The notes beneath the pieces are model-generated. The model did not search any database, had not been told where the DNA came from, and saw only the letters and a list, made by a program, of their open reading frames with translations. The translations under genes and the position numbers were made by a program. A stretch of DNA of 24,774 nucleotides, taken from the IMG/VR virus record IMGVR_UViG_2778261448_000010, positions 1 through 24,774 of that record. The stretch is one strand, 5' to 3'. Shown here in pieces: positions 427 through 19,626 of the stretch (positions within the stretch are counted from its first letter, which is position 1; each line of letters opens with the position of its first letter). This DNA comes from a virus. Lineage: Duplodnaviria; Heunggongvirae; Uroviricota; Caudoviricetes.

Positions 427-2559
427 TCACTTAAAAGGAGTGTTTATCCTAACAACTCTCAAATAAACATCTCTTATATTTTCACCTCCATTTGGCCTTA
501 AAACTGTTGCTGAAATAACTCCACTTTGTGAAGCAGATACTGTTGCGTTATATACTAATGAACTATTGAATTGTTGAGCGTGTATTTGCCTTGATGTTGT
601 TTCAATTTGCTCTCCGGCTCTCATCATAACTGCATGTTCTGAAAAACACCCGCCAGCACCAGTTGTTGTTGTCGCTGTAACCTCAACTCTATAGAAATAC
701 ATAGCAAGCGTACCTGAGTTTACTGAATTATTTGGAACTGGCACTTGTACGGTTATTGAGACTGGGCCGCTATCAACTCCTGTTGCCTGAGCACACCAGC
801 CAATTTCACCATTCTGAGATATTAATGTGAATATGCATCGATCTTTTGTCCCAGCGTTTACCTGATACGTTGTTGTATAGGTGGCACCATAGAAATGCTC
901 TACGGTTATGGCAGTACCGAAGTTCTCTCCCCAACCAGTCCATGAAGGCCAGATACTGGCATTGCTTTTAATGGCTACGCCATTATTGATGCACTTCAGA
1001 GACACTTTCCCATTATTACAAGAACTCAAGAGCACAGGGACTCCAGGAATGCTGTTCCTTAGTGTTATCTCAACATCCGGCTGCTCTGCGGTTACCAACA
1101 TTAGTGGCTCGACTGTTCTTGGAACCGTATTGAGCGGTATGTTAATCTCCATGTCGCGCACTCGCGTCCTTGTACCGCCACATAGAAATGCGCATACACC
1201 ACCTACATTAGCAGGAAGATAAAGTCGAACACCTTCAAAAGACAAATCAAAAACATCCGATTGAGAATTTGTGATGATTTGAATAAGGTGTATAGGGCCG
1301 TTAACGTTTTCTCCCGTAAAATTACTCTTACTGGTGATGTTTCTGTAAATACCACCTGTTCCTGATACTTTTGCCGCAAACACTGGTGTGTCCGTCATGG
1401 TGCAAACTAAACCATCAACAACACACCCTGTTGACCCCGTGAGTTGTAAAGTTACATTGCAGCCGCCGTATCTGTTAGATAGAAGATTTCCGAACTCACC
1501 ACAGTTTGTTATAGAACCACTAGTGTTATTGATATACATCAGGTGTGACGGACCATACGCACCGAAACTTTCGTCATGCCGCAATGTCCCATACACGTAC
1601 TCAATATTGCATCCTGCAAAGTTGTTAATAAGTGCGCATGAATAGTGTGTACAATAGATGTTAGAGAAGAGAGAGCCTCTAAAATCACCCTCATAACCAG
1701 AAACAAGGAAGTCGTAGCGATTATCGCTGGTTTCACCGACTGCCATCGCATTAATCAATTTGAAACGATACGCGTTTGAATTCATCCCGATAAAGCCACA
1801 GAACGCAGCTTCCCACGGGCGAGTAATTCCATAGCGAGTGGTTGTTGTGCCCCCCAAAGGATAGCCGCCTTTATAGACAGCATTAAATCCCATAATGGTC
1901 ACATCAGGATTCCTGTTCATGAAGACCAGAAATCCAGTTTTCTCATGAGTTATTTTAGCACCGTTAAAATCAATATATGCACCAGCGGGAGGAGTGATGA
2001 CATTTTCCTCATTCATCACCATACGATATGTGGAACCTCTCTTCATGAGGCATCTTCCAGTCATAATAGCATTAGTCACCGCCACTGTATCATCAGCTAC
2101 ACCATCTCCAATTGCTCCATATTGCTCTGGCGTTGCCCAATATGACAAACTATCCGCTACTGTACCAGCCAAGTATCCAATTTTAGTTGCACCATCTTCT
2201 TCAGACAGTTCACTTCGAAATTGATCAGGGTCGTACTTCAGCACATTCGGAAAATAGAACTGCTGCACACCGTACGCATCATAAACAGCCATAGAATGGC
2301 CTTGCACAGTTACGAACTTGGCAATCTGTCCGTTATATACAGGGTAACCAGCAGCGTTAATGATGATTGGTTGCGAAACAGGAACGTGAGAGCCGTCTTC
2401 GTTTTCCACATAAACCTGAATCTGGTTTTCAGGATGTACAGGGTCAGTGTCAATTTTTCCGATATAAATTTTGCCATTGGCTACGGCTTTAAAAGATCGC
2501 GCCATAGTGAAGAGTTGCGAAGGCATCGATACGATCACATTGGCTGTAATGTCTGTCAT
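427..2559 (-). CDS. Tailspike protein (P22 gp9-like head-binding domain, HK620-like length)
   Basis: The 710-aa ORF starts [13 protein letters not shown]...[19 protein letters not shown]...[12 protein letters not shown]...NVLKYDPDQ, matching the conserved N-terminal head-binding domain of P22 tailspike. The remainder differs from P22 gp9. 710 aa is the length I recall for the HK620 tailspike. RBS GGAG lies upstream of the ATG. Confidence 0.9.
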
Positions 2560-2659: not shown

Positions 2660-3590
2660 TCAGTAGTTATGTACTGAAGGAGGCAATTCTTTATTCTTAA
2701 GTCTCATCCATGCGGAAAGATTCGTTGGTCCGTCTGGCTCATTAATATCAACATCTCGTGTGTGGTTTATTAAAACGTCTCTCGCCATTCCGATAACATA
2801 CGAGAATTCATGACCGTAGTCGTAGCATCTGCCGGAATAGTTCGATTGAATTTGTTTTAGCGCCGGATACAGTTCGCGGAATAATGCCTGTGAGCGGTTG
2901 GCATAATCCCATAACCATACAAGGCTGTTTGCTTCTTTTGCAGAAAGCTCGTTGGTTTTCTTCTCTTGTTTGCCAATGAACTCACCTTCAAGTGGAACTC
3001 GAGCTGCAAGTGACAGTGCTTCGGTAAACTGCTCCTCACTGATTTCTTTGTACGAACATCCAAAATGGGATTTCAGTGACGACCACATGGTGATCATCGC
3101 CTTAGCCTGTTTTTCTTTTGGCAGAGACTGACCGCGACTCATGACGAGTTGTTTAATGGCTTCCTGCTGTTCAGTGGTGATTTTACCCGGCAACGCCTTT
3201 TTAGCTTTGCGTGGGTTAACTACATGGCCTTTAGTCCAGTACTCATAGAGCACATCGTCACACTCTTCCTGATACTGGATTACATTGTCGCGGATTTCAG
3301 GACGGACTTTGTTAGGGCTGATGGTTTGCAGCCAACCTGCAAGTTTGCGAAGTGCCAAACAAATAATCTCACGGCACTGTTCATCACCAGGAAGCTGCAT
3401 TGTGATTTTCACAATGGAGGTTTTAAACCGTTGCTTTATTTTCGTAAACTGTGAAGCCCAATCCATACCCATGCCTATCAACGATAGGTTTCATTGGGGT
3501 GTACGGTTCACCGTTGTGATTGACGACATAAAGCTCTGCGCCGTGGAATGGCACGTTGATAGTAGATACTGCCGTTGCTATACTTTTCAT
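2660..3590 (-). pseudogene. Antirepressor-like gene (P22 Ant N-terminal domain family) disrupted by a 1-bp frameshift
   Basis: A 55-codon ORF from ATG 3588-3590 ([38 protein letters not shown]...) ends at stop 3423-3425. The 273-aa track ORF (2660-3481, TTG start) continues the same domain in another frame ([14 protein letters not shown]...LPGDEQ...RKLAGWL...[12 protein letters not shown]...[15 protein letters not shown]). Removing the minus-strand A at about 3476 would fuse them into ...[16 protein letters not shown]... Confidence 0.6.
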
Positions 3591-3678
3591 GTCAGTTTTT
3601 CCTCAAAATTTACTGACGATTTAAGCCCGAGCTACTCGCAATAGGTTGTTTGATGGGTAAATCATGATTACTCCTTAT

Positions 3679-3700
3679 AAAAAACCCACCTGACGGTGGG
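3679..3700. terminator. Bidirectional intrinsic terminator-like hairpin downstream of the lipoprotein gene
   Basis: Hairpin CCCACC-tgac-GGTGGG (3685-3700) is flanked by AAAAAA on one side and TTTCATTTCTT on the other, giving a U-tract on both strands. Confidence 0.65.
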
Positions 3701-3709
3701 TTTCATTTC

Positions 3710-4141
3710 TTAATCTTGCTTCGTGGAAGGTATAAGAGATGCATTTGCCTCTTTTGGCTTCAATGTATACATCCCACCATTAAATGGATCAACAGCAAGC
3801 CAACCGATTAACCCACCAAACACAAGGTTTCCACCAATATACCAACCATTAGCATTGGCTTTGATTGGCAGGGTAACTGGTTCGTACCCATCCTTCTCCA
3901 TAGTGATCTGGTAGCTCTTTTTGCCAAAATAACTACCATCTGACTTGGCAAGAGTTACTCCTTGCGGGGTCTTACCTTGCGCAACAATCACGCCTGATTC
4001 GTCTTTTACCTTAAAGCTCGCACCGGAAGGGTTGCTGTTCACTTGCACAAGTTGCGTTTCATCACCAACAATAGTTGCGCACCCAGATAACATCATAGCA
4101 CCAGCAACGACGCCAATAATCCTCTTCATATCAATTTCCAT
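3710..4141 (-). CDS. Predicted outer-membrane lipoprotein with PEGA-like domain (moron; possible superinfection exclusion)
   Basis: The ORF has signal peptide MKRIIGVVAGAMMLSGC with lipobox LSGC, and Ala follows the Cys. The likely true start is the second ATG at 4127-4129. The central segment resembles a PEGA-type beta domain (...GKTPQGVTL...SYQITMEKDGYEPVTLPI) and the C-terminus is Gly-rich (GWYIGGNLVFGGLIGW). It has its own downstream terminator. Confidence 0.75.
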   Translation of the reverse strand: MEIDMKRIIGVVAGAMMLSGCATIVGDETQLVQVNSNPSGASFKVKDESGVIVAQGKTPQGVTLAKSDGSYFGKKSYQITMEKDGYEPVTLPIKANANGWYIGGNLVFGGLIGWLAVDPFNGGMYTLKPKEANASLIPSTKQD

Positions 4142-4246
4142 ATTTAAAAAACCGGAAACATCCTAATGACAAACCATTCAAATGTGAAGTAGGCAAAAGA
4201 TGTTTACTTTTTTCATGGTATCCTGCACAAAACTAAGGAGGTTGGC

Positions 4247-4570
4247 GTGTATACAACAGTTATCGTGATAGCTATCGCACTCATTGTGGTTCAGTACCAA
4301 CTGGCATCTTTAAAACAAAAGATATCTGACCTCAAGACTGAGAACGAAGCACTTAAAAACTCAATAAAAGATGAGAAGAACAAACTATCATTCACTATAT
4401 CTGATATTGAGCAATCCATTGAAATTATTGAGAATAATATTAACAGACTAAAAAAAGAAGATATTCATGAAATCAATGACAATATCAAGGATTTGAAATC
4501 TTGGCTTAGGAATGTAGGACAAATCGCCACATCAACACGAGATAAGCTCAATCCATCCATGGATGATTAA
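4247..4570 (+). CDS. Small bitopic membrane protein with N-terminal TM helix and coiled coil (moron of unknown function)
   Basis: This is the only convincing plus-strand gene. GTG start is preceded by a strong SD TAAGGAGG (4234-4241) with 5-nt spacing. The hydrophobic N-terminus is YTTVIVIAIALIVVQY, followed by a K/E/N-rich heptad-like region. Composition is visibly AT-rich relative to flanking structural genes. Its stop TAA (4568-4570) abuts the gp16 stop (4571-4573). Confidence 0.7.
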   Translation: MYTTVIVIAIALIVVQYQLASLKQKISDLKTENEALKNSIKDEKNKLSFTISDIEQSIEIIENNINRLKKEDIHEINDNIKDLKSWLRNVGQIATSTRDKLNPSMDD

Positions 4571-6697
4571 TTACTCCTGTGCTATTCCGCTTAGCGACGC
4601 TACAATGCCAGCCCTCGCTAAGCGATTGAACTCTTCGTTTCCAACTGCATCACGTATTGCTTTTACGGCGGCTTTATTTGCCATAAATCTGCGTTCCGCT
4701 GCCGCTAATGCTTCTTTGCTTCCGCCTGTTCTTACTGCTTTAGTGGCTTCCTGAACTGCTTTCTCTATCGCATACCGACCACTACGTGTGGTGGCAATTT
4801 TAGATACAGCGCCTTTTAACCCAGCGCCAACTAAAGCACCTGCGGCAGCGCCTGCAATGCCTCCTCCAGCGCCACCAACAATGGCACCTGATGTTGAGTT
4901 GGCAATTGCATTTAACACTGTTGATGTGACGTTGGATAAACCAGCATCCAGATCGCGTAGTACATTGGCAGTTCTCCCTGTTCTTTCAATATACTGCTGA
5001 GGTTTCACTGCTGCTCTTGCAAGAGTGCCATACGCATCAGCAATTCTTCCAAGCTCTGAGGAATATCTGCTAATGGCTTTTACATTTTGTGGAGTGAGTA
5101 TCTCTGCGATATGGTTAATTCCTGCTGCATCAGCTTTGCCACCACGTACACCATGCGAGATGGCATCCTGCAACATTGATGATATAGCAGGAACACGCTC
5201 TGATTCTGGCAGCGCGCGGATCATAGAATGGAATCCAGCAGGACCATTAAGGCCTTTAGCTGACGATGATTGAAGAGATTTTACTCCATTCGTAATCAGT
5301 GCATCTGTTGCCAAATCACGCCCAAAGACAGACTCTGCACTCTCTTGTGCGGATAACCTCGCTTTAGACAGATCATTAGCTTTTTGCCAGTCATCAAGAA
5401 ATCCGCCGTTTTCCGCCATTGTGCGCATATCATCAGTAATTGCCCGGCGTATTTCCCCTGCTCTCCTTGCCGCATTTGCCTCTCCGCTACGCTTATATTT
5501 TTGCTCCGCATCAGCAAATTTCGCTCTCCATGCTTTCATGCCATCAAATGTTACTCCACCTTGATTGTTTGCCTGAACAAACTGTTTCATTTCAGGAGTA
5601 AGCGGTATGCCAGCAGATCGCTCTGCCTGAATAACGGCATTACCATTTAGCATTCTTGCTTTTTGATTTGGCATTGTTGACCGCACGTCATCCCATGCCG
5701 CGCGCTCGGCATCCTTCATCTGATCAAGATTTTGAAGAATCCTTTGTTTTATAGCCGCACTTTTTTCTGATGCCGTTCCAGATGCGGCCCCAAATTCATC
5801 AAGGTTTCGACTTAACTTTGATGATATTTCGTTAAATGCTGCCTGATGGGCGTCCTGAACAATTCCTGGTGTTGATGCCAATGCTCCTTCGGCTTGTGCA
5901 ATTCCACGACTTCCAGATCGCATTCCTGGTGTTAATGCGTTTATATCAATTCCAGCAGACTCAGCCGCTTTTGCTACATCTTCGGACACATTAGCGGCCT
6001 GACTGGCAATTGACTGACGCCCAGCACCTGACTTTGCCATCCTGGAAACATCATTAGCAGAATTCAGTGCTGCACCACCAAGAGCCTGTGAAACCCTTGG
6101 CGCAATAACGCGCCCAAAACCTGAAAGAACGCCTTGAGCGCCAATATTGATACCACCGTTAATGGCAGCATTTTGTGCAAAGTCGCCCTCCTGATTTGCA
6201 GCATCAGCAAGAGAACCTGCAATCATGTTTCCTGCGGAACCGATGTCTCCTGCGAGCTTTGCTGGCGCTCCAGCAGCTTTTGCCGCTGTGCCAATTGGCA
6301 GGAGATACCCACCAATTGTTTCACCAGCTTGCGCGTAAGGGTCTGTCGGTCTGTCTACTGGACGATAAACATCATCCAAAACCTTGGGGCCACCAAGCCC
6401 CTGACTGATTGCATTAATCAGACTTGCGCCACCCTGCAATACGTCAAATGGTATGTTTACCAGACCACGACCAGCCTGTTCTGCAATTTGCCCTGCACTT
6501 TGACCACCAGTGAGCCAATCGCCAGCTTTTTGCATCAATGATGGTTCTTCACGTGCTGGTTCATTGCTATCCTGGCTGACAGTTTGTTGCTGAACAGACT
6601 GTCCAGCAAAATACTCATCAATGGCAGATCCAATATCTTCCGTGCTCGTACCATCAGGGAAGGTAAATGTCTTACCGTTTGCAGTTACTTTCATCAT
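4571..6697 (-). CDS. Ejection (E) protein gp16-like
   Basis: The 708-aa ORF begins [33 protein letters not shown], matching the P22 gp16 N-terminus as I recall it. It sits after gp20 in the conserved order 7-20-16. Confidence 0.85.
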
Positions 6698-8100
6698 TCC
6701 ACCGTAAATTGAATGCCTGATTTTGAGGTATATGATCCAACCTGATTCCGTGGTTCTCCTGAAGGTATCGAATCTTGTGCTGGCGCTGCGTCAGTATTCA
6801 ATGACATATACCGCTTAACAGCACTCCCCAATGATTCACCTTTTTTAACATCCAACCCCAATATCTGACCGCCATTACGCGATTGTCCAGGGTTGCCATT
6901 CGCGCTCATCCACTCAGCTTTAAACTCATTAAACTGCGCGTTTCGTCGCTCAAGGTTTGCCATTGCATCAAGCCATCTTGCGACCGTCTCAGGGTTATCC
7001 ATGTCAGTTGGCGCACCCTGTCTAACGATCTCAACGTCTTTATCCGTTGCTGGGCCGGGAGGTAGGAATTTAAGAACCTGACTGTTAACAAGGGCATTTT
7101 GGCGAATGCGCAAATCACGCAATGTCGTATCGCTTCCGGTAAGTTTTGCGAACATGTTCTGTGCGTTACCGAACAAACCTGTCGTTGGTTTTTCTGCTCT
7201 GAACTGTTGAGCAAGCGCACTCATAGAATTGGCTGAGTTTGATGATGCTGTGGCATTGTTTACAGCCGTCTCGATGCCTTTTTCCATGTTTACTGACAGC
7301 TTAGGTGCTTCGCTAATCAACTGCTGAGCCTTTTCCTGCGCTTGCTGCATCTTAAACCCGAACTCTTGCTGATCCAGAGCCAAGCGTTGTGCTGCGATAT
7401 TGTGCCCAGTCATTGCTGACTGATAGGAAAGGTTTTGCCCTCTCGCCTGAAGTGCTTCTCCGGCCTGATTGCTGCGGATTGTCTCTGCCAGCCTGCCTCG
7501 GTCAATCTCACGACCAGCCATCTTGTCCTGAACATTGAAGTAGTCAATCGGACCAAGAGCAGCCATTCCAAGGTGATCAACAAACTCACCAAATCCTGAA
7601 GGGTTCTGCTGATACATCTGAGCAACACTGTTAGGGTCAACACCGACGCGAGTCAGTTCCTTGGCGTTGTTTTGCAGCCATGATTGCATTGCTTCTGGAG
7701 ACGATGACGCAAGGCGTGCGCCAGCCGCTAAGGTGCCGATAGAATTACGCTGGTCTTCATCAATGAATCCCATGCCTTTACGAACGGATTCAATCTGGTC
7801 TGGATATTGAGTAGCCAACTGACGCAAAGCACCGCGATCACCAGACGCATAAGCATTAGCGTATGCCTGCTGAAATTCTTTCTGCCGCTGAGCCTGCTTT
7901 TCCTGCTGAAACACCCCCGCAATACCTGAAAGGCCTTGCAAAGCAGTCAGCCCAACATTGTTAGCGCCTGAACGCTCAATATCATTGTTCTGCCTAATAA
8001 GTTGAAGCGTATTGCCGATGTCATTTACGCTCGGAGCGTTTGAGTTGACGCCGCCGATACCAGCCAACAATCCGCCGTTTGTTCCTTGCCAAGTAGCCAT
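6694..8100 (-). CDS. Ejection (E) protein gp20-like
   Basis: The 468-aa ORF ([17 protein letters not shown]...) has the size and position of P22 gp20; its start overlaps the gp16 region. Confidence 0.8.
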
Positions 8101-8109
8101 GATTACCCC

Positions 8110-8802
8110 TTAAAACAACGAGCCAAGCAATCCGATACCAGCACCAATGCCAGCGCCCCAAGGTGTTGATGTTCCCAAAAGGCTGGCAAGACCTGCACCG
8201 GCAATCGCACCAGACGTTCCGCCACTAATTGCAGTCTGAAGACTTGATGGTTTATTGGCATTAGCAGCGGCAAGAGCTGCGCTTTGCTGTGCAATGCTGC
8301 TCATGTTGTTGGCGTACGTCTGCCCGGCGTTTGCCTGACCTTGCAGCGCACCAAGCCCAACGTTTGCCAGATTGTTGTAATTGCTCATCTGGTTTGATAA
8401 CCAAGACTGACCGAGTGTCGGCGCGATCGTAGCCAGTTGATTGCTTATGGCTGTCGAACCAAGTCCGCCAGTCGCTTCCGCAGCAGCAAGACTCTGGTAA
8501 CGAGCCTGACCTGCAAGGTCTTTATACTGCTGAGAATTGTAATACTGATTAAGTGCCTGTCCCTGACCTTCTAAACTGGAAAGATTCTGAAGCTGGTTAA
8601 CATACTGCTCCGCAAGCGGCGTGAACGGAGCAAGGTTTTTCATGATCGTCTGCCACTGCTGATTTTGCAGGTCTGCGGCATACTTCTGAGCTTCTGCGGC
8701 ATACTTTGCGCTTTTATCAGAACTGCCACCTTTCCCGCCTTTTTCAGGGCAATAAGGTTCCTCGCCGCGCAGTTTTCTGCCCATCTTAAATGCATATAAC
8801 AT
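8110..8802 (-). CDS. Ejection (E) protein gp7-like
   Basis: The 230-aa ORF MLYAF.MGRKLRGEEP..PEKGGKGGSSDKSA.YAAEAQKYAADLQNQQWQTIMKNL... closely matches P22 gp7 (229 aa) as I recall it. Confidence 0.85.
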   Translation of the reverse strand: MLYAFKMGRKLRGEEPYCPEKGGKGGSSDKSAKYAAEAQKYAADLQNQQWQTIMKNLAPFTPLAEQYVNQLQNLSSLEGQGQALNQYYNSQQYKDLAGQARYQSLAAAEATGGLGSTAISNQLATIAPTLGQSWLSNQMSNYNNLANVGLGALQGQANAGQTYANNMSSIAQQSAALAAANANKPSSLQTAISGGTSGAIAGAGLASLLGTSTPWGAGIGAGIGLLGSLF

Positions 8803-8804
8803 GG

Positions 8805-9260
8805 CTATCTCCCGTGATTCAGGAAGTCGATTAGTTCTTCGCGTGTGGCGCTGTAAAACGTCACGTCATCCACGCCTTTAAAGTATTTCTTGATGGTTCC
8901 GACACGCTTAAGGCCAATCATTGCGCAGTAAATCTGCCCGTGGCGGAATTTGCGTGCGGCGAACGATGTGACGCACTGAACGGTGGTGTTAGTCAGAATG
9001 TATTTCCAGAACTCCAGCCCGATTTCCTTGCTGAATCCACGAATCTCTGGCAGGTACATGGCGTGGCAATCGAATGTCAGCGGCTGAATCTCCTGATAGT
9101 AAACAATGCCGCCGAACTGCCCGTGCACGTTCACCTCAAAGTAACGGCATTCAGGTTTGTAGTCGTATCCATCACCGTTGTTGCTCCCGGCAATAATGTC
9201 AGGGTGATTTCCGACTGCTTCTATCAGGTCGATGTTTCGCGTTGGTTTGAACTGAATCAT
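8805..9260 (-). CDS. gp14-like virion/DNA-ejection assembly protein
   Basis: The 151-aa ORF lies between tail needle and gp7, the position of P22 gene 14. Confidence 0.65.
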   Translation of the reverse strand: MIQFKPTRNIDLIEAVGNHPDIIAGSNNGDGYDYKPECRYFEVNVHGQFGGIVYYQEIQPLTFDCHAMYLPEIRGFSKEIGLEFWKYILTNTTVQCVTSFAARKFRHGQIYCAMIGLKRVGTIKKYFKGVDDVTFYSATREELIDFLNHGR

Positions 9261-10108
9261 TACTGCTCCGCGATTATCTTGATGGTTGTGGCAGTAAACG
9301 CCGCAACATTCGACTGAATGGTTAACGTGCTGCCATTTGTGGCAAGAAAGCCGTCTTTATCCACGCTGAAGAACGTAGCTAACAGGATGTTATCGGTTGT
9401 TGTCGCTGCATTACGACTGCTGACCAACGTGTCAGGAACAGAGCCGGAAAAGGTTAGCTGCATTGACCTGTTGGCGGTTCCGCTGGGCCACGTCCCGACG
9501 ATCGACAGCTTGAAGAACAAGGTTTTGTTCTCGTTGAACACAACCATCTTGTTGTTAACAGTGTCGAAGAATGGTGCCAACGAGCCGGATGACGGCGTGA
9601 GCGTTTTCAGCAGGCTAACAAGGTTGGTCGGCGCTGTCGGGATGGTTACAGATACGCCAGAGTAAACAACCTCTGACTTCTTGCGATTAGTGGCATACTC
9701 CAGAGCATCGATGCGCGTTTCATGGTCTGAAAGCGTGTTTTGAATGGCGATAACTTCATCAGTCAGATAATCAATATCGTTTTCTGCTGTCGTTAATCGT
9801 GAATCAAGGCCGACTATCGCCGCTTCTGCGTTAGTGATCCTTGTTTCGTGGTCCTGTATCTTCGCTTCAGCCGATGCCAGTCGAATTTCGTGATCGACCA
9901 GAATCACATCCTGCTCATCGTTCCTGACCTGTGCATCATAAGCGCCCTGTCCGGCCTCGTTGGCTTTGTTAGCCACGTTACCAACATCAGTTCCCTGTGC
10001 GATAACGTAAAGCAGATACGACTGCGAGAAGATATTACGCGGAAGGACTGATGTGTCGAGTCGTGTAGCCTGAATGATTACCGGCACATTAAGATTCGAA
10101 TCAGCCAT
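9260..10108 (-). CDS. Tail needle protein gp26-like with C-terminal knob extension
   Basis: The 282-aa ORF has an N-terminal coiled-coil heptad region ([50 protein letters not shown]) followed by a beta-rich C-terminal domain. It sits between gp10 and gp14. Length fits the Sf6-type knobbed needle rather than the 233-aa P22 needle. Confidence 0.8.
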
Positions 10109-11526
10109 TACTCAATCCTTATCTGGCAGCCAGACAGAGTGACAGGTGACTTAGTGATAACGCGCAATTTGAAGCCAATGTTTTTCCTGATGCGCCCTAC
10201 TTTCTTCCACAAAACGCGTTTGTCGTAAACGAACGGTTCATTCTGCTCAATCATCTGCTCACGCCCGTAATTGATGCCGTCAGTGGTTGCAGAGAGGAAC
10301 AGGCGGTCAGCGTACTGCGCAACGCCAGTTGAAGATTCAACTTCAAGGTCGAAAACTCTGGCGTTATCTGCTTTGAACAACGGAGTAAACAGCAGGTGTT
10401 CTTGTTGCTTGTCGTACTGGCTGCCGATATCGAACTGCAGTTTCCCGGTAACAGATTCCAGCTTATCGCCGCACGTTATCTGATTGCCTTCGTAAATGAA
10501 GTCGATAGCGCGGTACACATCGTCATACAGGCCTGTTTTCAACACACACCATTGCGGACCATTGGCGCTTGAAGATGCGTCGTACACGAGGACGTGACGT
10601 GGAAGATGGATAATCAGCAATTCATGAGCATCAAAGCGCAACGATTCCATCACGCCATCAGCCAGTTCATCAGCAGTGTAGGAGCGGAGGATTTTCTCAA
10701 TGCTCGCGCTGGCGATTGGTGACACCTGACCGGAGCCGATGATGTATACAGACGGCGCACCTGTTGCCGGATTGCTTATGAACGCATACGAATCAGCAAA
10801 CGGCGTTTTGCAGTAAGTCCCGGCGATGCCTTTTTGCACCATCAGTGATGGCTGTGCGACATACAAAGCGGCACCAACGGTGGTTGCGCCAGTCAGGGAG
10901 AAATATTCAATCGTCGATGAGCCAAAGCAAACGATGAAGTCTCGCCATGTACCTATGCCGATGATGCCGTCCGGCTGCGATTCTGCGCGATATTGTGCGC
11001 TGTAACGGTCAGGATGCGATTCGTCTTCAAGGTCAGTGATAAACCACGAATCAGTTCCGTCTTTTGACCACGCATAACGCCCACGTAAGCGTGTAATGTC
11101 GCGGACTGAGCCTAACTCATACTGCGTGAATCCGCTGTCTGTAGGCCAGTTTGAGACGGTTTTAACCGTGCCATCATAGCGATACTCAACCAGTTGACCA
11201 TTAACGCCTACAGCCTGAGATGTTCGACCATGCGCCATTGATACGCGACCACTTCCGGCGACGTCACCGACTTCGCTTTCGCCTTTGTAGAGCTTGCCGC
11301 CACACACACGATAGACAGCATTCTGCGCCATGTTGTACTCGACGCCGCGCGATACACCGTTCACATCAGAGCGTTTGGCAATGCCCGGGAATGAGCGAAG
11401 ATATCCGCTGCTGTTCAGGATTTCTTTGGGGGTTGCCAACATATTCACTGGCAGATAGTCGATATAGTCGGCGTTTCGAAAGTCTTTGCCGACACCTTTC
11501 ATAAGCGGAAGTTGCTGAATCGGCAT
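10108..11526 (-). CDS. Tail hub protein gp10-like
   Basis: The 472-aa [52 protein letters not shown]... is near-identical over the N-terminus to P22 gp10 (472 aa) as I recall it. Confidence 0.9.
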
Positions 11527-11535
11527 TTATTCACC

Positions 11536-11997
11536 TCACGTACTCGGATCATCTTTCTCGATGTAAAACCGATTCCACGTAAACGCGCTTTTGTTACCAC
11601 TACCGCGAGGCATGTCATTTCTCCGCTCAAGTGGTGGTATTTTGGTTAAACCGATACAGATTGTCTGATATGCACTGTCAGCAGCGGTAAGGAGAGCGTC
11701 TGACGGCTGAATGACGTTATCCATGCACACTTGCACAGCGAGTTTCAAAGCGACGCCATCATTTGCCCATGCAGGGATACCTGAATCATCGTCAGGTAAC
11801 GGCATGATGCCGTTTTCTGTATCAGCAAACTGATACCCAAGCTCGATACCTTTTGCCTGCCATGCTGCCATCATGTCTTCGAGGTCATTAATGGCATCTT
11901 CAATTGCCTGAGGGTCAGCATCTGTCAACGTGGCATTGGAATACAGCCCGGCTTTTCGTAAAGCCTTAAGAACGAGATCACCCTTCGTTTTCGCCAT
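11536..11997 (-). CDS. Tail adaptor/head-completion protein gp4-like
   Basis: The 153-aa ORF ..KTKGDLV.KALRK.G...ATLTD..PQ...DA.NDLEDMMAAW.. matches the P22 gp4 N-terminal pattern and sits immediately upstream of gp10. Confidence 0.8.
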   Translation of the reverse strand: MAKTKGDLVLKALRKAGLYSNATLTDADPQAIEDAINDLEDMMAAWQAKGIELGYQFADTENGIMPLPDDDSGIPAWANDGVALKLAVQVCMDNVIQPSDALLTAADSAYQTICIGLTKIPPLERRNDMPRGSGNKSAFTWNRFYIEKDDPST

Positions 11998-19189: not shown

Positions 19190-19626
19190 AACCTCGTCTA
19201 GTTGTTCGCCATAGATTCAGTGGCAGGCGGTGACGAGTCCGCTTTTCGGGAGCTACCCTAGCCACTGCTTGATTCTATCCGATGTCTTTCCATCAGTCCG
19301 CCACCACAAAGAATCTTTTTTGCCATAAGGCAGGAGGTTCATCTTTCAGTGGCTGCCAGTGTTATTTCCCCACTTACTGGCTTGGGTTGCTTCGTGGTAC
19401 TGCCGTTAACTGGTTGCCCAGAATAAATTCCGGTTTCATTATCAAGCCCACCCGTAGATAGGCTTTGTAATGAACTGGCTCTTATCTCAACGCAGCCCCT
19501 TACCGCGCGCCAGATGCTCAATATCAAGCATCAGCAATGAGATGTTTAATCTGGATTCACTCCAGAAGTGATCACCACCCTGTCTACAGAGCCAGATGTG
19601 AAGGATGATGAGTAAAATTATCGCTA

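Follow-up and report, generated by a model that had tools for sequence, protein, structure and literature searches.

Longer gp16 and a knobbed tail needle in a P22-like genome-delivery block as known, exchangeable gene versions

The DNA analysed here, called the window throughout, is the whole 24,774-nucleotide stretch of IMG/VR virus record IMGVR_UViG_2778261448_000010, and it is the late (virion) operon, on the minus strand, of a P22-like phage or prophage of the genus Lederbergvirus. Our interest is in positions 4571-10108, where the genes of the ejection proteins gp16, gp20 and gp7, of gp14 and of the tail needle gp26 follow one another, and in gene 10 directly next to them. An original prediction, made from the letters of the DNA, had pointed out that the gp16 homologue and the needle are both longer than their P22 counterparts and had proposed that the additional segments are modules of adaptation to the host envelope. 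We consider it very probable that this is the standard genome-delivery block (gp10, needle gp26, gp14, gp7, gp20, gp16) and that other, already catalogued alleles explain the lengths; no evidence was found that contradicts an explanation by known alleles in a mosaic P22-like genome. The genes of the block are:

10108-11526, minus strand: gene 10, 472 residues, directly upstream of the needle gene (PF11134)
9260-10108, minus strand: tail needle gene 26, 282 residues (PF16532)
8805-9260, minus strand: gene 14 homologue, 151 residues (PF11039, E=3e-53; 97% identical to Sf6, 91% to P22)
8110-8802, minus strand: gene 7 homologue, ejection protein, 230 residues (PF25688 P22_gp7, E=3e-133; 98% identical to Sf6, 82% to P22)
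6694-8100, minus strand: gene 20 homologue, ejection protein, 468 residues, mosaic (PF16928 Inj_translocase on residues 10-225; phrog_917 on residues 1-468)
4571-6697, minus strand: gene 16 homologue, DNA-transfer (ejection) protein, 708 residues (open reading frame and phrog_770)

Gene 16 and the needle gene overlap their neighbours in the ATGA or TAATG manner, as in P22. The needle gene is placed between gene 10 upstream and gene 14 downstream, its codons for start and stop overlapping with theirs, and gene 16 is the final gene of the gene 7-gene 20-gene 16 cluster, its start overlapping the stop of gene 20. Every gene of the block except gene 16 has a Pfam match, and gp16 and gp20 were placed by their PHROGs. 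Within 4571-10108, scans for promoters and terminators were no richer than shuffled controls, and an Rfam scan gave no match. The P22 proteins in NC_002371.2 have 609 (gp16), 233 (gp26), 229 (gp7), 471 (gp20) and 472 residues (gp10), so that the reported differences in length, 708 against 609 residues for gp16 and 282 against 233 for the needle, are correct. That gp7, gp20 and gp10 resemble P22 in both length and sequence, as had also been stated, is true of gp10 (93% identity), of gp7 and of the length of gp20, but not of the gp20 sequence, which is only 35% identical overall and shares almost nothing with P22 beyond residue ~240.

The gp16 homologue belongs to phrog_770 ('DNA transfer protein'), with residues 1-667 aligned to profile positions 1-666 of 668 (E=6.6e-232), and finds P22 gp16 (YP_063718.1, 609 residues) by BLASTP with E=6e-81. 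Among the phages compared, identity is 97.9% to epsilon34 (over 708/708 residues), 96% to CUS-3 and 97% to the body of the Dewey protein, falling to 73% for HK620, 35% for P22 and 21% for Sf6. The lengths of these proteins are 708 (epsilon34), 719 (CUS-3), 875 (Dewey), 722 (HK620), 609 (P22) and 665 residues (Sf6). Along the protein, the following segments can be told apart:

6599-6697, minus strand: N-terminal module of gp16, residues 1-33, P22/epsilon34 type (alignments)
6296-6547, minus strand: conserved core, residues 51-134, including a hydrophobic stretch (alignments)
6248-6295, minus strand: 16-residue Ala/Gly-rich segment, residues 135-150 (a gap in P22 in pairwise and multiple alignments)
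4709-6088, minus strand: divergent C-terminal body, residues 204-663, epsilon34/CUS-3 type (alignments)
4829-4885, minus strand: Gly/Ala-rich hydrophobic segment, residues 605-623 (Kyte-Doolittle)
4574-4708, minus strand: C-terminal tail of 42-45 residues, residues 664-708 (absent from P22 and Sf6 gp16)

The N-terminal module agrees with P22 at 29/32 aligned positions and with epsilon34 at 32/33. CUS-3 and HK620, whose gp16 begins with a different module (MAKAWKDV...), share no more than 8/33. The conserved core is shared by all four, with 79/84 identical residues in P22, 82/84 in HK620 and 81/84 each in CUS-3 and epsilon34. The 135-150 segment, which is missing in P22, is present in epsilon34, CUS-3, HK620 and Dewey; residues 151-203 are identical to P22 at 27/53 positions. 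Thereafter the body of residues 204-663 is nearly that of CUS-3 (459/460) and epsilon34 (456/460), less so that of HK620 (311/460), and retains 97/460 identical positions (~21%) with P22, in which its first 21 residues (204-224) have no counterpart. This body also contains the protein's top Kyte-Doolittle score, 1.63 in a 19-residue window at residues 605-623, where the aligned segment of P22 reaches 0.73. By sharing at least 95% of the variable C-terminal ~500 residues as well as the length class, the window protein is the epsilon34/CUS-3 allele of gp16.

In the pairwise alignment P22 gp16 ends at window residue ~666, and what follows is conserved at 45/45 positions in epsilon34, 44/45 in CUS-3 and 41/45 in HK620. 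Because the last of these figures exceeds that for the variable region of the same protein (311/460, ~68%), the comparison suggests that the C-terminal tail is functionally constrained. A single inserted module was considered as the source of the additional length and rejected, since the alignment with P22 contains 14 gaps specific to the window (1, 16, 21, 1, 2, 3, 2, 3, 7, 2, 6, 5, 4 and 42 residues) and 5 specific to P22, dispersed at ~21% identity. Judged from this pattern, the surplus of 99 residues is the sum of the differences between two divergent alleles plus the C-terminal tail, with no inserted module. The 'insertions' or 'extra segments' of the original prediction thus do not exist as modules, being dispersed insertions and deletions plus a tail in gp16 and the replacement of a domain in the needle.

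How usual a gp16 of 708 residues is can be read from its relatives. Searched exhaustively with HMMER, 1.84 billion cluster representatives yielded only 104 of them. The 35 with at least 550 residues have lengths of 565-953 (median 703); some of these match the N-terminal module only and are best read as proteins of other types in the gp16 position. In IMG/VR, where all counts given here refer to the best 80 of 351 confirmed relatives (loci L008-L087), the gp16 reading frames have 689-722 residues and a median of 708, apart from a truncated copy and a form of 875 residues that carries an SLT domain. The allele itself is present at 80% or more of its length in 111/5426 complete E. coli genomes, the best matches being ~97% identical, and a published tabulation gives 609, 665, 719, 722 and 708 residues (PMC8954989 Table 1). 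By these comparisons, 708 residues is an ordinary length and P22 is the short outlier. Neither 'extended' nor 'lineage-specific' therefore describes an epsilon34/CUS-3 allele that sits at or near both medians and recurs in so many E. coli genomes. A scan of GTDB representative genomes, one per species, gave one gp16 locus, in Tatumella terrea at 58% identity, and is uninformative on host range.

Over its full length, M1 to Q282, the needle aligns collinearly and gap-free with Sf6 gp9; it consists of three parts:

9902-10108, minus strand: N-terminal domain of the needle, residues 1-69 (69/69 identical to Sf6 gp9; match to PDB 8EAP)
9692-9901, minus strand: coiled-coil shaft of a variant type, residues 70-139 (33/70 identical to Sf6)
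9263-9691, minus strand: Sf6-type knob, residues 140-282 (PF16532; PDB 3RWN and 4K6B)

The columns of residues 1-69 are mostly invariant across P22, HK620, Dewey and Sf6, the shaft segment has the same length as the shafts of P22 and Sf6, and PDB entries of gp26 match residues 1-139, i.e. the tail-plug domain and the helical shaft. The suspicion that an Sf6-type knob forms the C-terminus is borne out: PF16532 ('Sf6-type phage tail needle knob') covers residues 109-282 with E=2.2e-106, the crystallized knobs of Sf6 (PDB 3RWN) and of the prophage HS1 (PDB 4K6B) are matched with E=9.4e-88 and E=3e-87, respectively, and 138/143 residues of the knob (96.5%) are identical to Sf6 gp9. The residues listed as ligands of L-glutamate in the Sf6 knob, E146, K200, S248 and D250 (PMC3741392 Table 2), are all kept at the same positions. 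At 96.5% identity to a crystallized knob, that of the window is expected to be a trimer with a TNF-like fold at the tip of the tail. With P22 gp26 (233 residues; PDB 2POH and 3C9I), the needle shares ~60% identity over residues 1-137, comprising plug and shaft, and the P22 tip (P22 residues 141-233) is replaced in the window by an unrelated knob of 143 residues. In sequence terms, the surplus over P22 is hence the replacement of a tip domain and not an addition.

Such knobs are common. Knob DNA occurs in 819/5426 complete E. coli genomes, where RefSeq labels the product 'tail needle knob protein'; the 34 knobs among the IMG/VR loci are 95.8-97.9% identical to that of the window; and 69/164 P22-like genomes in an earlier survey had Sf6-type knobs differing by no more than 4.9% (Leavitt et al. 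2013, PMC3741392). Separately, the needle query aligned at ~60% identity over residues 1-267, knob region included, in the Salmonella phages MW722521.1 (S9-5) and MW790496.1 (vB_SalP_ABTNLsp11242), and divergent needles of the knob type may therefore exist in Salmonella phages, contrary to that survey (PMC3741392).

The two longer proteins belong to different parts of a mosaic, as blastn against the reference loci delimits two blocks of DNA:

3676-6732: epsilon34-like block, 96.6% identity, with the genes of a lipoprotein-like and an hkcB-like product, with gene 16 and with the final ~35 nucleotides of gene 20
7451-11536: Sf6-like block, 93.4% identity, extending from the 5' half of gene 20 through genes 7, 14 and 26 to gene 10

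The interval between them, 6733-7450, encodes the C-terminal half of gp20 and had no blastn match in the six reference phages. The epsilon34/CUS-3 allele of gene 16 has its place in the 3-kilobase epsilon34-like block and the Sf6-type allele of gene 26 in the 4-kilobase Sf6-like block, such alleles being swapped by recombination at conserved flanks and assorting independently of one another. In the IMG/VR loci, gp16 of the epsilon34/CUS-3 type is accompanied by 17 knob needles and 21 P22-type tips, and HK620-like gp16 by 17 and 18, respectively; the type of needle tip is independent of the type of gp16. One gp16 body is moreover combined with at least five types of gp20 C-terminus. No genome of the complete E. 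coli set and no member of the phage collection holds the whole 5.5-kilobase region in one high-identity piece. This lack of a single match reflects mosaicism rather than novelty, because the IMG/VR locus L011 has a combination of gp16, gp20 and knob identical to that of the window.

Gp20 is a mosaic in itself. At 468 residues it is nearly as long as its P22 homologue (471); residues 1-~200 are ~97% identical to Sf6 gp12, residues ~217/240-455 have no match in P22, epsilon34, CUS-3, HK620, Sf6 or Dewey, and the final 14 residues are of the P22/epsilon34 tail type. N7, the closest phage match, reaches no more than 75% identity across the full protein, and this type of C-terminal half is present at 98-100% identity in E. 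coli prophages and IMG/VR contigs.

A separate observation concerns the junction between gp20 and gp16 (6599-6740), where gp20 tail types are paired with gp16 N-terminal modules with zero exceptions in the 80 loci. There are three main types, i.e. FTVE plus MKVTANG (22 loci), LWGD plus MAKAWKD (31 loci) and (I/S)NKYLGGQ plus MAYSREQLMTAL (22 loci), the NKYLGGQ tail going with the module MAYSREQ; the N-terminal module type of the window is always accompanied by a gp20 ending in FTVE. The gp20 and gp16 bodies that flank the junction recombine freely. Compatibility between gp16 and gp20 has been found genetically (Leavitt et al. 2024) and is implied by single-gene swaps between Sf6 and P22 (PMC10883804). 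The pairing could be plain linkage or could determine compatibility, and it is consistent with direct contact without proving it. That the gp20 terminus (~15 residues) and the beginning of gp16 (~35-45 residues) are co-inherited as a physically interacting pair, which would set gp16-gp20 compatibility, strikes us as unlikely.

Published studies of P22 and Sf6 give an outline of what these proteins do. The tail is plugged by the needle, whose tip reaches the outer membrane first and influences how fast the DNA is released (PMC3741392); P22 gp7, gp20 and gp16 are ejected and form a conduit across the envelope, with gp16 at the inner membrane, and gp16 is packaged in the virion, leaves it ahead of the DNA, becomes associated with the inner membrane and is needed for DNA entry (PMC10883804). 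By analogy, the N-terminus of the window needle would plug the tail channel, and its knob would be the first part to arrive at the outer membrane and tune the kinetics of ejection; once the needle is released, gp7, gp20 and gp16 would exit the capsid and build the trans-envelope conduit, gp16 taking its place at the inner membrane. For a membrane role of the window gp16, hydropathy gives only hints. No Pfam or NCBIfam family matches the protein, nor does any solved structure in the PDB, the sole matches being weak, coiled-coil-like ones to coronavirus S2 (E=0.0016). The coronavirus S2 match was taken as compositional and set aside.

Could the differences in length be artefacts of annotation, caused by mis-called start or stop codons? 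A reason to ask is found at the gene 20/16 junction, which reads GGTGGAATAATGAAA in P22 and GGTGGAATGATGAAA in the window: a single A-to-G change has turned the TAA stop into TGA and has made an extra in-frame ATG one codon upstream. Because of this, the P22-equivalent start is the second ATG, at 6694, with a product of 707 residues, and the extra ATG explains one residue only. The N-terminus of gp16 aligns with P22 from the first residues on and its C-terminus with epsilon34, CUS-3 and HK620 to the last residue, gp16 and needle each match homologues of equal length over their entire span, and the overlaps with neighbouring genes are P22-like. Mis-called starts were therefore dismissed: the alignments with the P22, Sf6 and HK620 homologues, which had been named as the check, find the differences to be real, and an artefact is vanishingly improbable. 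Another explanation, that the additional residues in gp16 and the knob of the needle are modules of envelope adaptation particular to the host of this lineage, draws on the fact that both proteins act at the envelope, on the finding of the 2013 survey that Sf6-type knobs were confined to phages of Escherichia and Shigella, with 0/48 among Salmonella P22-like phages, from which its authors proposed a possible evolutionary disadvantage of knobs in Salmonella, and on the shift in K+ release rate caused by changes in the needle tip (all PMC3741392). Yet gp16 is at least 95% identical in the Salmonella phages epsilon34 and SEN22 and the E. coli phages CUS-3, Dewey and Louie; P22 hybrids with the ejection proteins of CUS-3, HK620, Sf6 or L have normal titres on Salmonella (PMC10883804 Table 4); and infection of Salmonella by P22 that bears the knob of Sf6 or HS1 is normal (PMC3741392 Table 3). 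Moreover, knobs assort independently of the type of gp16, and the gp16 difference is dispersed and not modular. Host-envelope adaptation is thus contradicted and largely refuted at the level of the genus, and we regard it as improbable.

If the envelope of the host is not what maintains the diversity of gp16 and gp20, superinfection exclusion at the inner membrane seems the more plausible selective force on their C-termini, with an arms race against SieA-like inner-membrane exclusion proteins as its form. P22 mutants that escape SieA have alterations within the C-terminal parts of gp16 (G532W, P546S) and of gp20, and the ejection proteins of HK620 escape SieA in part (PMC10883804). In the window gp16, the first site corresponds to G574, which lies in the C-terminal body and is invariant in 7/7 sequences, and the second aligns with N600, five residues before the adjoining hydrophobic segment 605-623; gene 16 is also linked, within the epsilon34-like block, to two small membrane or lipoprotein genes at the position of sieA. 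On the other hand, the CUS-3 ejection set, with a gp16 96% like that of the window, is fully excluded by SieA of type A as well as type B (PMC10883804 Table 4), the authors of that work consider exclusion robust to the diversity of ejection proteins (PMC10883804), and the linkage is inconsistent, as only some 50% of the 80 loci contain hkcB and roughly 12 the lipoprotein gene. In absolute terms we entertain such an arms race only tentatively, as a possible but doubtful explanation.

A discrepancy between published and GenBank data may be mentioned here in its own right. Gp16 of CUS-3 and HK620 have been called 'only 26% identical', a figure used to ascribe the partial SieA escape of HK620 to gp16 (PMC10883804); the GenBank sequences (CUS-3, L001 3001-5160; HK620, L006 2229-4397) are 77% identical by BLASTP (559/726). 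The attribution to gp16 may still hold, with candidate differences that are far fewer than the 26% figure implies.

Beyond the block, the window contains the following genes, in the order of their coordinates:

427-2559, minus strand: tailspike, 710 residues (PF09008 head-binding domain)
2660-3481, minus strand: Ant-like antirepressor reading frame with a TTG start (PF10547/PF10548)
3710-4141, minus strand: lipoprotein-like reading frame with the signal MKRIIGVVAGAMMLSGC (98% identical to epsilon34 gp15; phrog_6823; weak PEGA match)
4247-4570, plus strand: hkcB-like reading frame adjoining the stop codon of gene 16 (hydrophobic N-terminus; coiled-coil-like matches)

The lipoprotein-like and hkcB-like genes occupy the position of P22 sieA, inside the epsilon34-like block of gene 16. 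They are candidates for envelope or exclusion functions expressed from the prophage; to take them as exclusion genes at a sieA locus would be a looser extension of the argument. A tblastn search with P22 SieA had no match in the 80 related loci, the window itself lying outside that search. The tailspike is known from its N-terminal head-binding domain only: tblastn alignments reach residue ~222 at most, and the receptor-binding part (~223-710) had no match in 50,697 phage records (tblastn, E<=1e-5) or in the PDB (phmmer, E<=0.01). The Ant-like reading frame has no counterpart to the initial ~28 positions of the P22_AR_N profile and may be a 5'-truncated remnant; a terminator-like hairpin lies 3' of it, at 2642-2623. 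Upstream of the terminase genes, an int-alpA small RNA (RF02996) is matched at 19206-19268 on the minus strand with 45.1 bits, the gathering score being 35.8.

Overall, a longer gp16 and a knobbed needle are already known as common, swappable gene versions of P22-like phages. The knob has been solved by crystallography and functionally tested, published reviews tabulate how gp16 varies in both length and sequence, and the exact combination of alleles is present in public viral contigs. The locus is nevertheless a worked example of a reference phage, P22, whose gp16 is atypically short for the family, and the independent reassortment of ejection-protein and needle alleles argues against reading lengths relative to P22 as host adaptation. 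In addition, the strict linkage of gp20 tail and gp16 module offers a small lead on mutual recognition between gp20 and gp16.

Among known systems, the gp16 counterpart nearest to that of the window is epsilon34 gp13 (YP_002533472.1, 708 residues), which has the same length, 97.9% identity over 708 residues and the same position after gene 20. CUS-3 gp16 (ABQ88390.1, 719 residues) is 96% identical over residues 25-708 and differs in its N-terminal module. Both phages have an hkcB-like gene immediately downstream of gene 16 on the opposite strand, as does the window; their needles, however, are of the 233-residue P22 type, whereas the window combines this gp16 with a knobbed needle and a different gp20 allele. 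P22 gp16 shares position and PHROG family with the window protein but is without the 16-residue and 21-residue segments and the tail of 42-45 residues. In Dewey (875 residues; L003 2988-5615), the gp16 body is 97% identical to the window from residue ~31 on, and an N-terminal SLT domain (PF01464, E=2.8e-25), seen also in locus L018, replaces the short N-terminal module. This arrangement is analogous to the N-terminal lytic domain of T7 gp16, whereas Pfam finds no SLT lytic transglycosylase domain in gp16 of the window. For the needle, finally, the nearest known system is gp9 of the Shigella phage Sf6 (NP_958185.1, 282 residues; 3RWN), which has the same length and an identical stretch of residues 1-69 and differs mainly in the shaft, where only 47% of the residues are the same.

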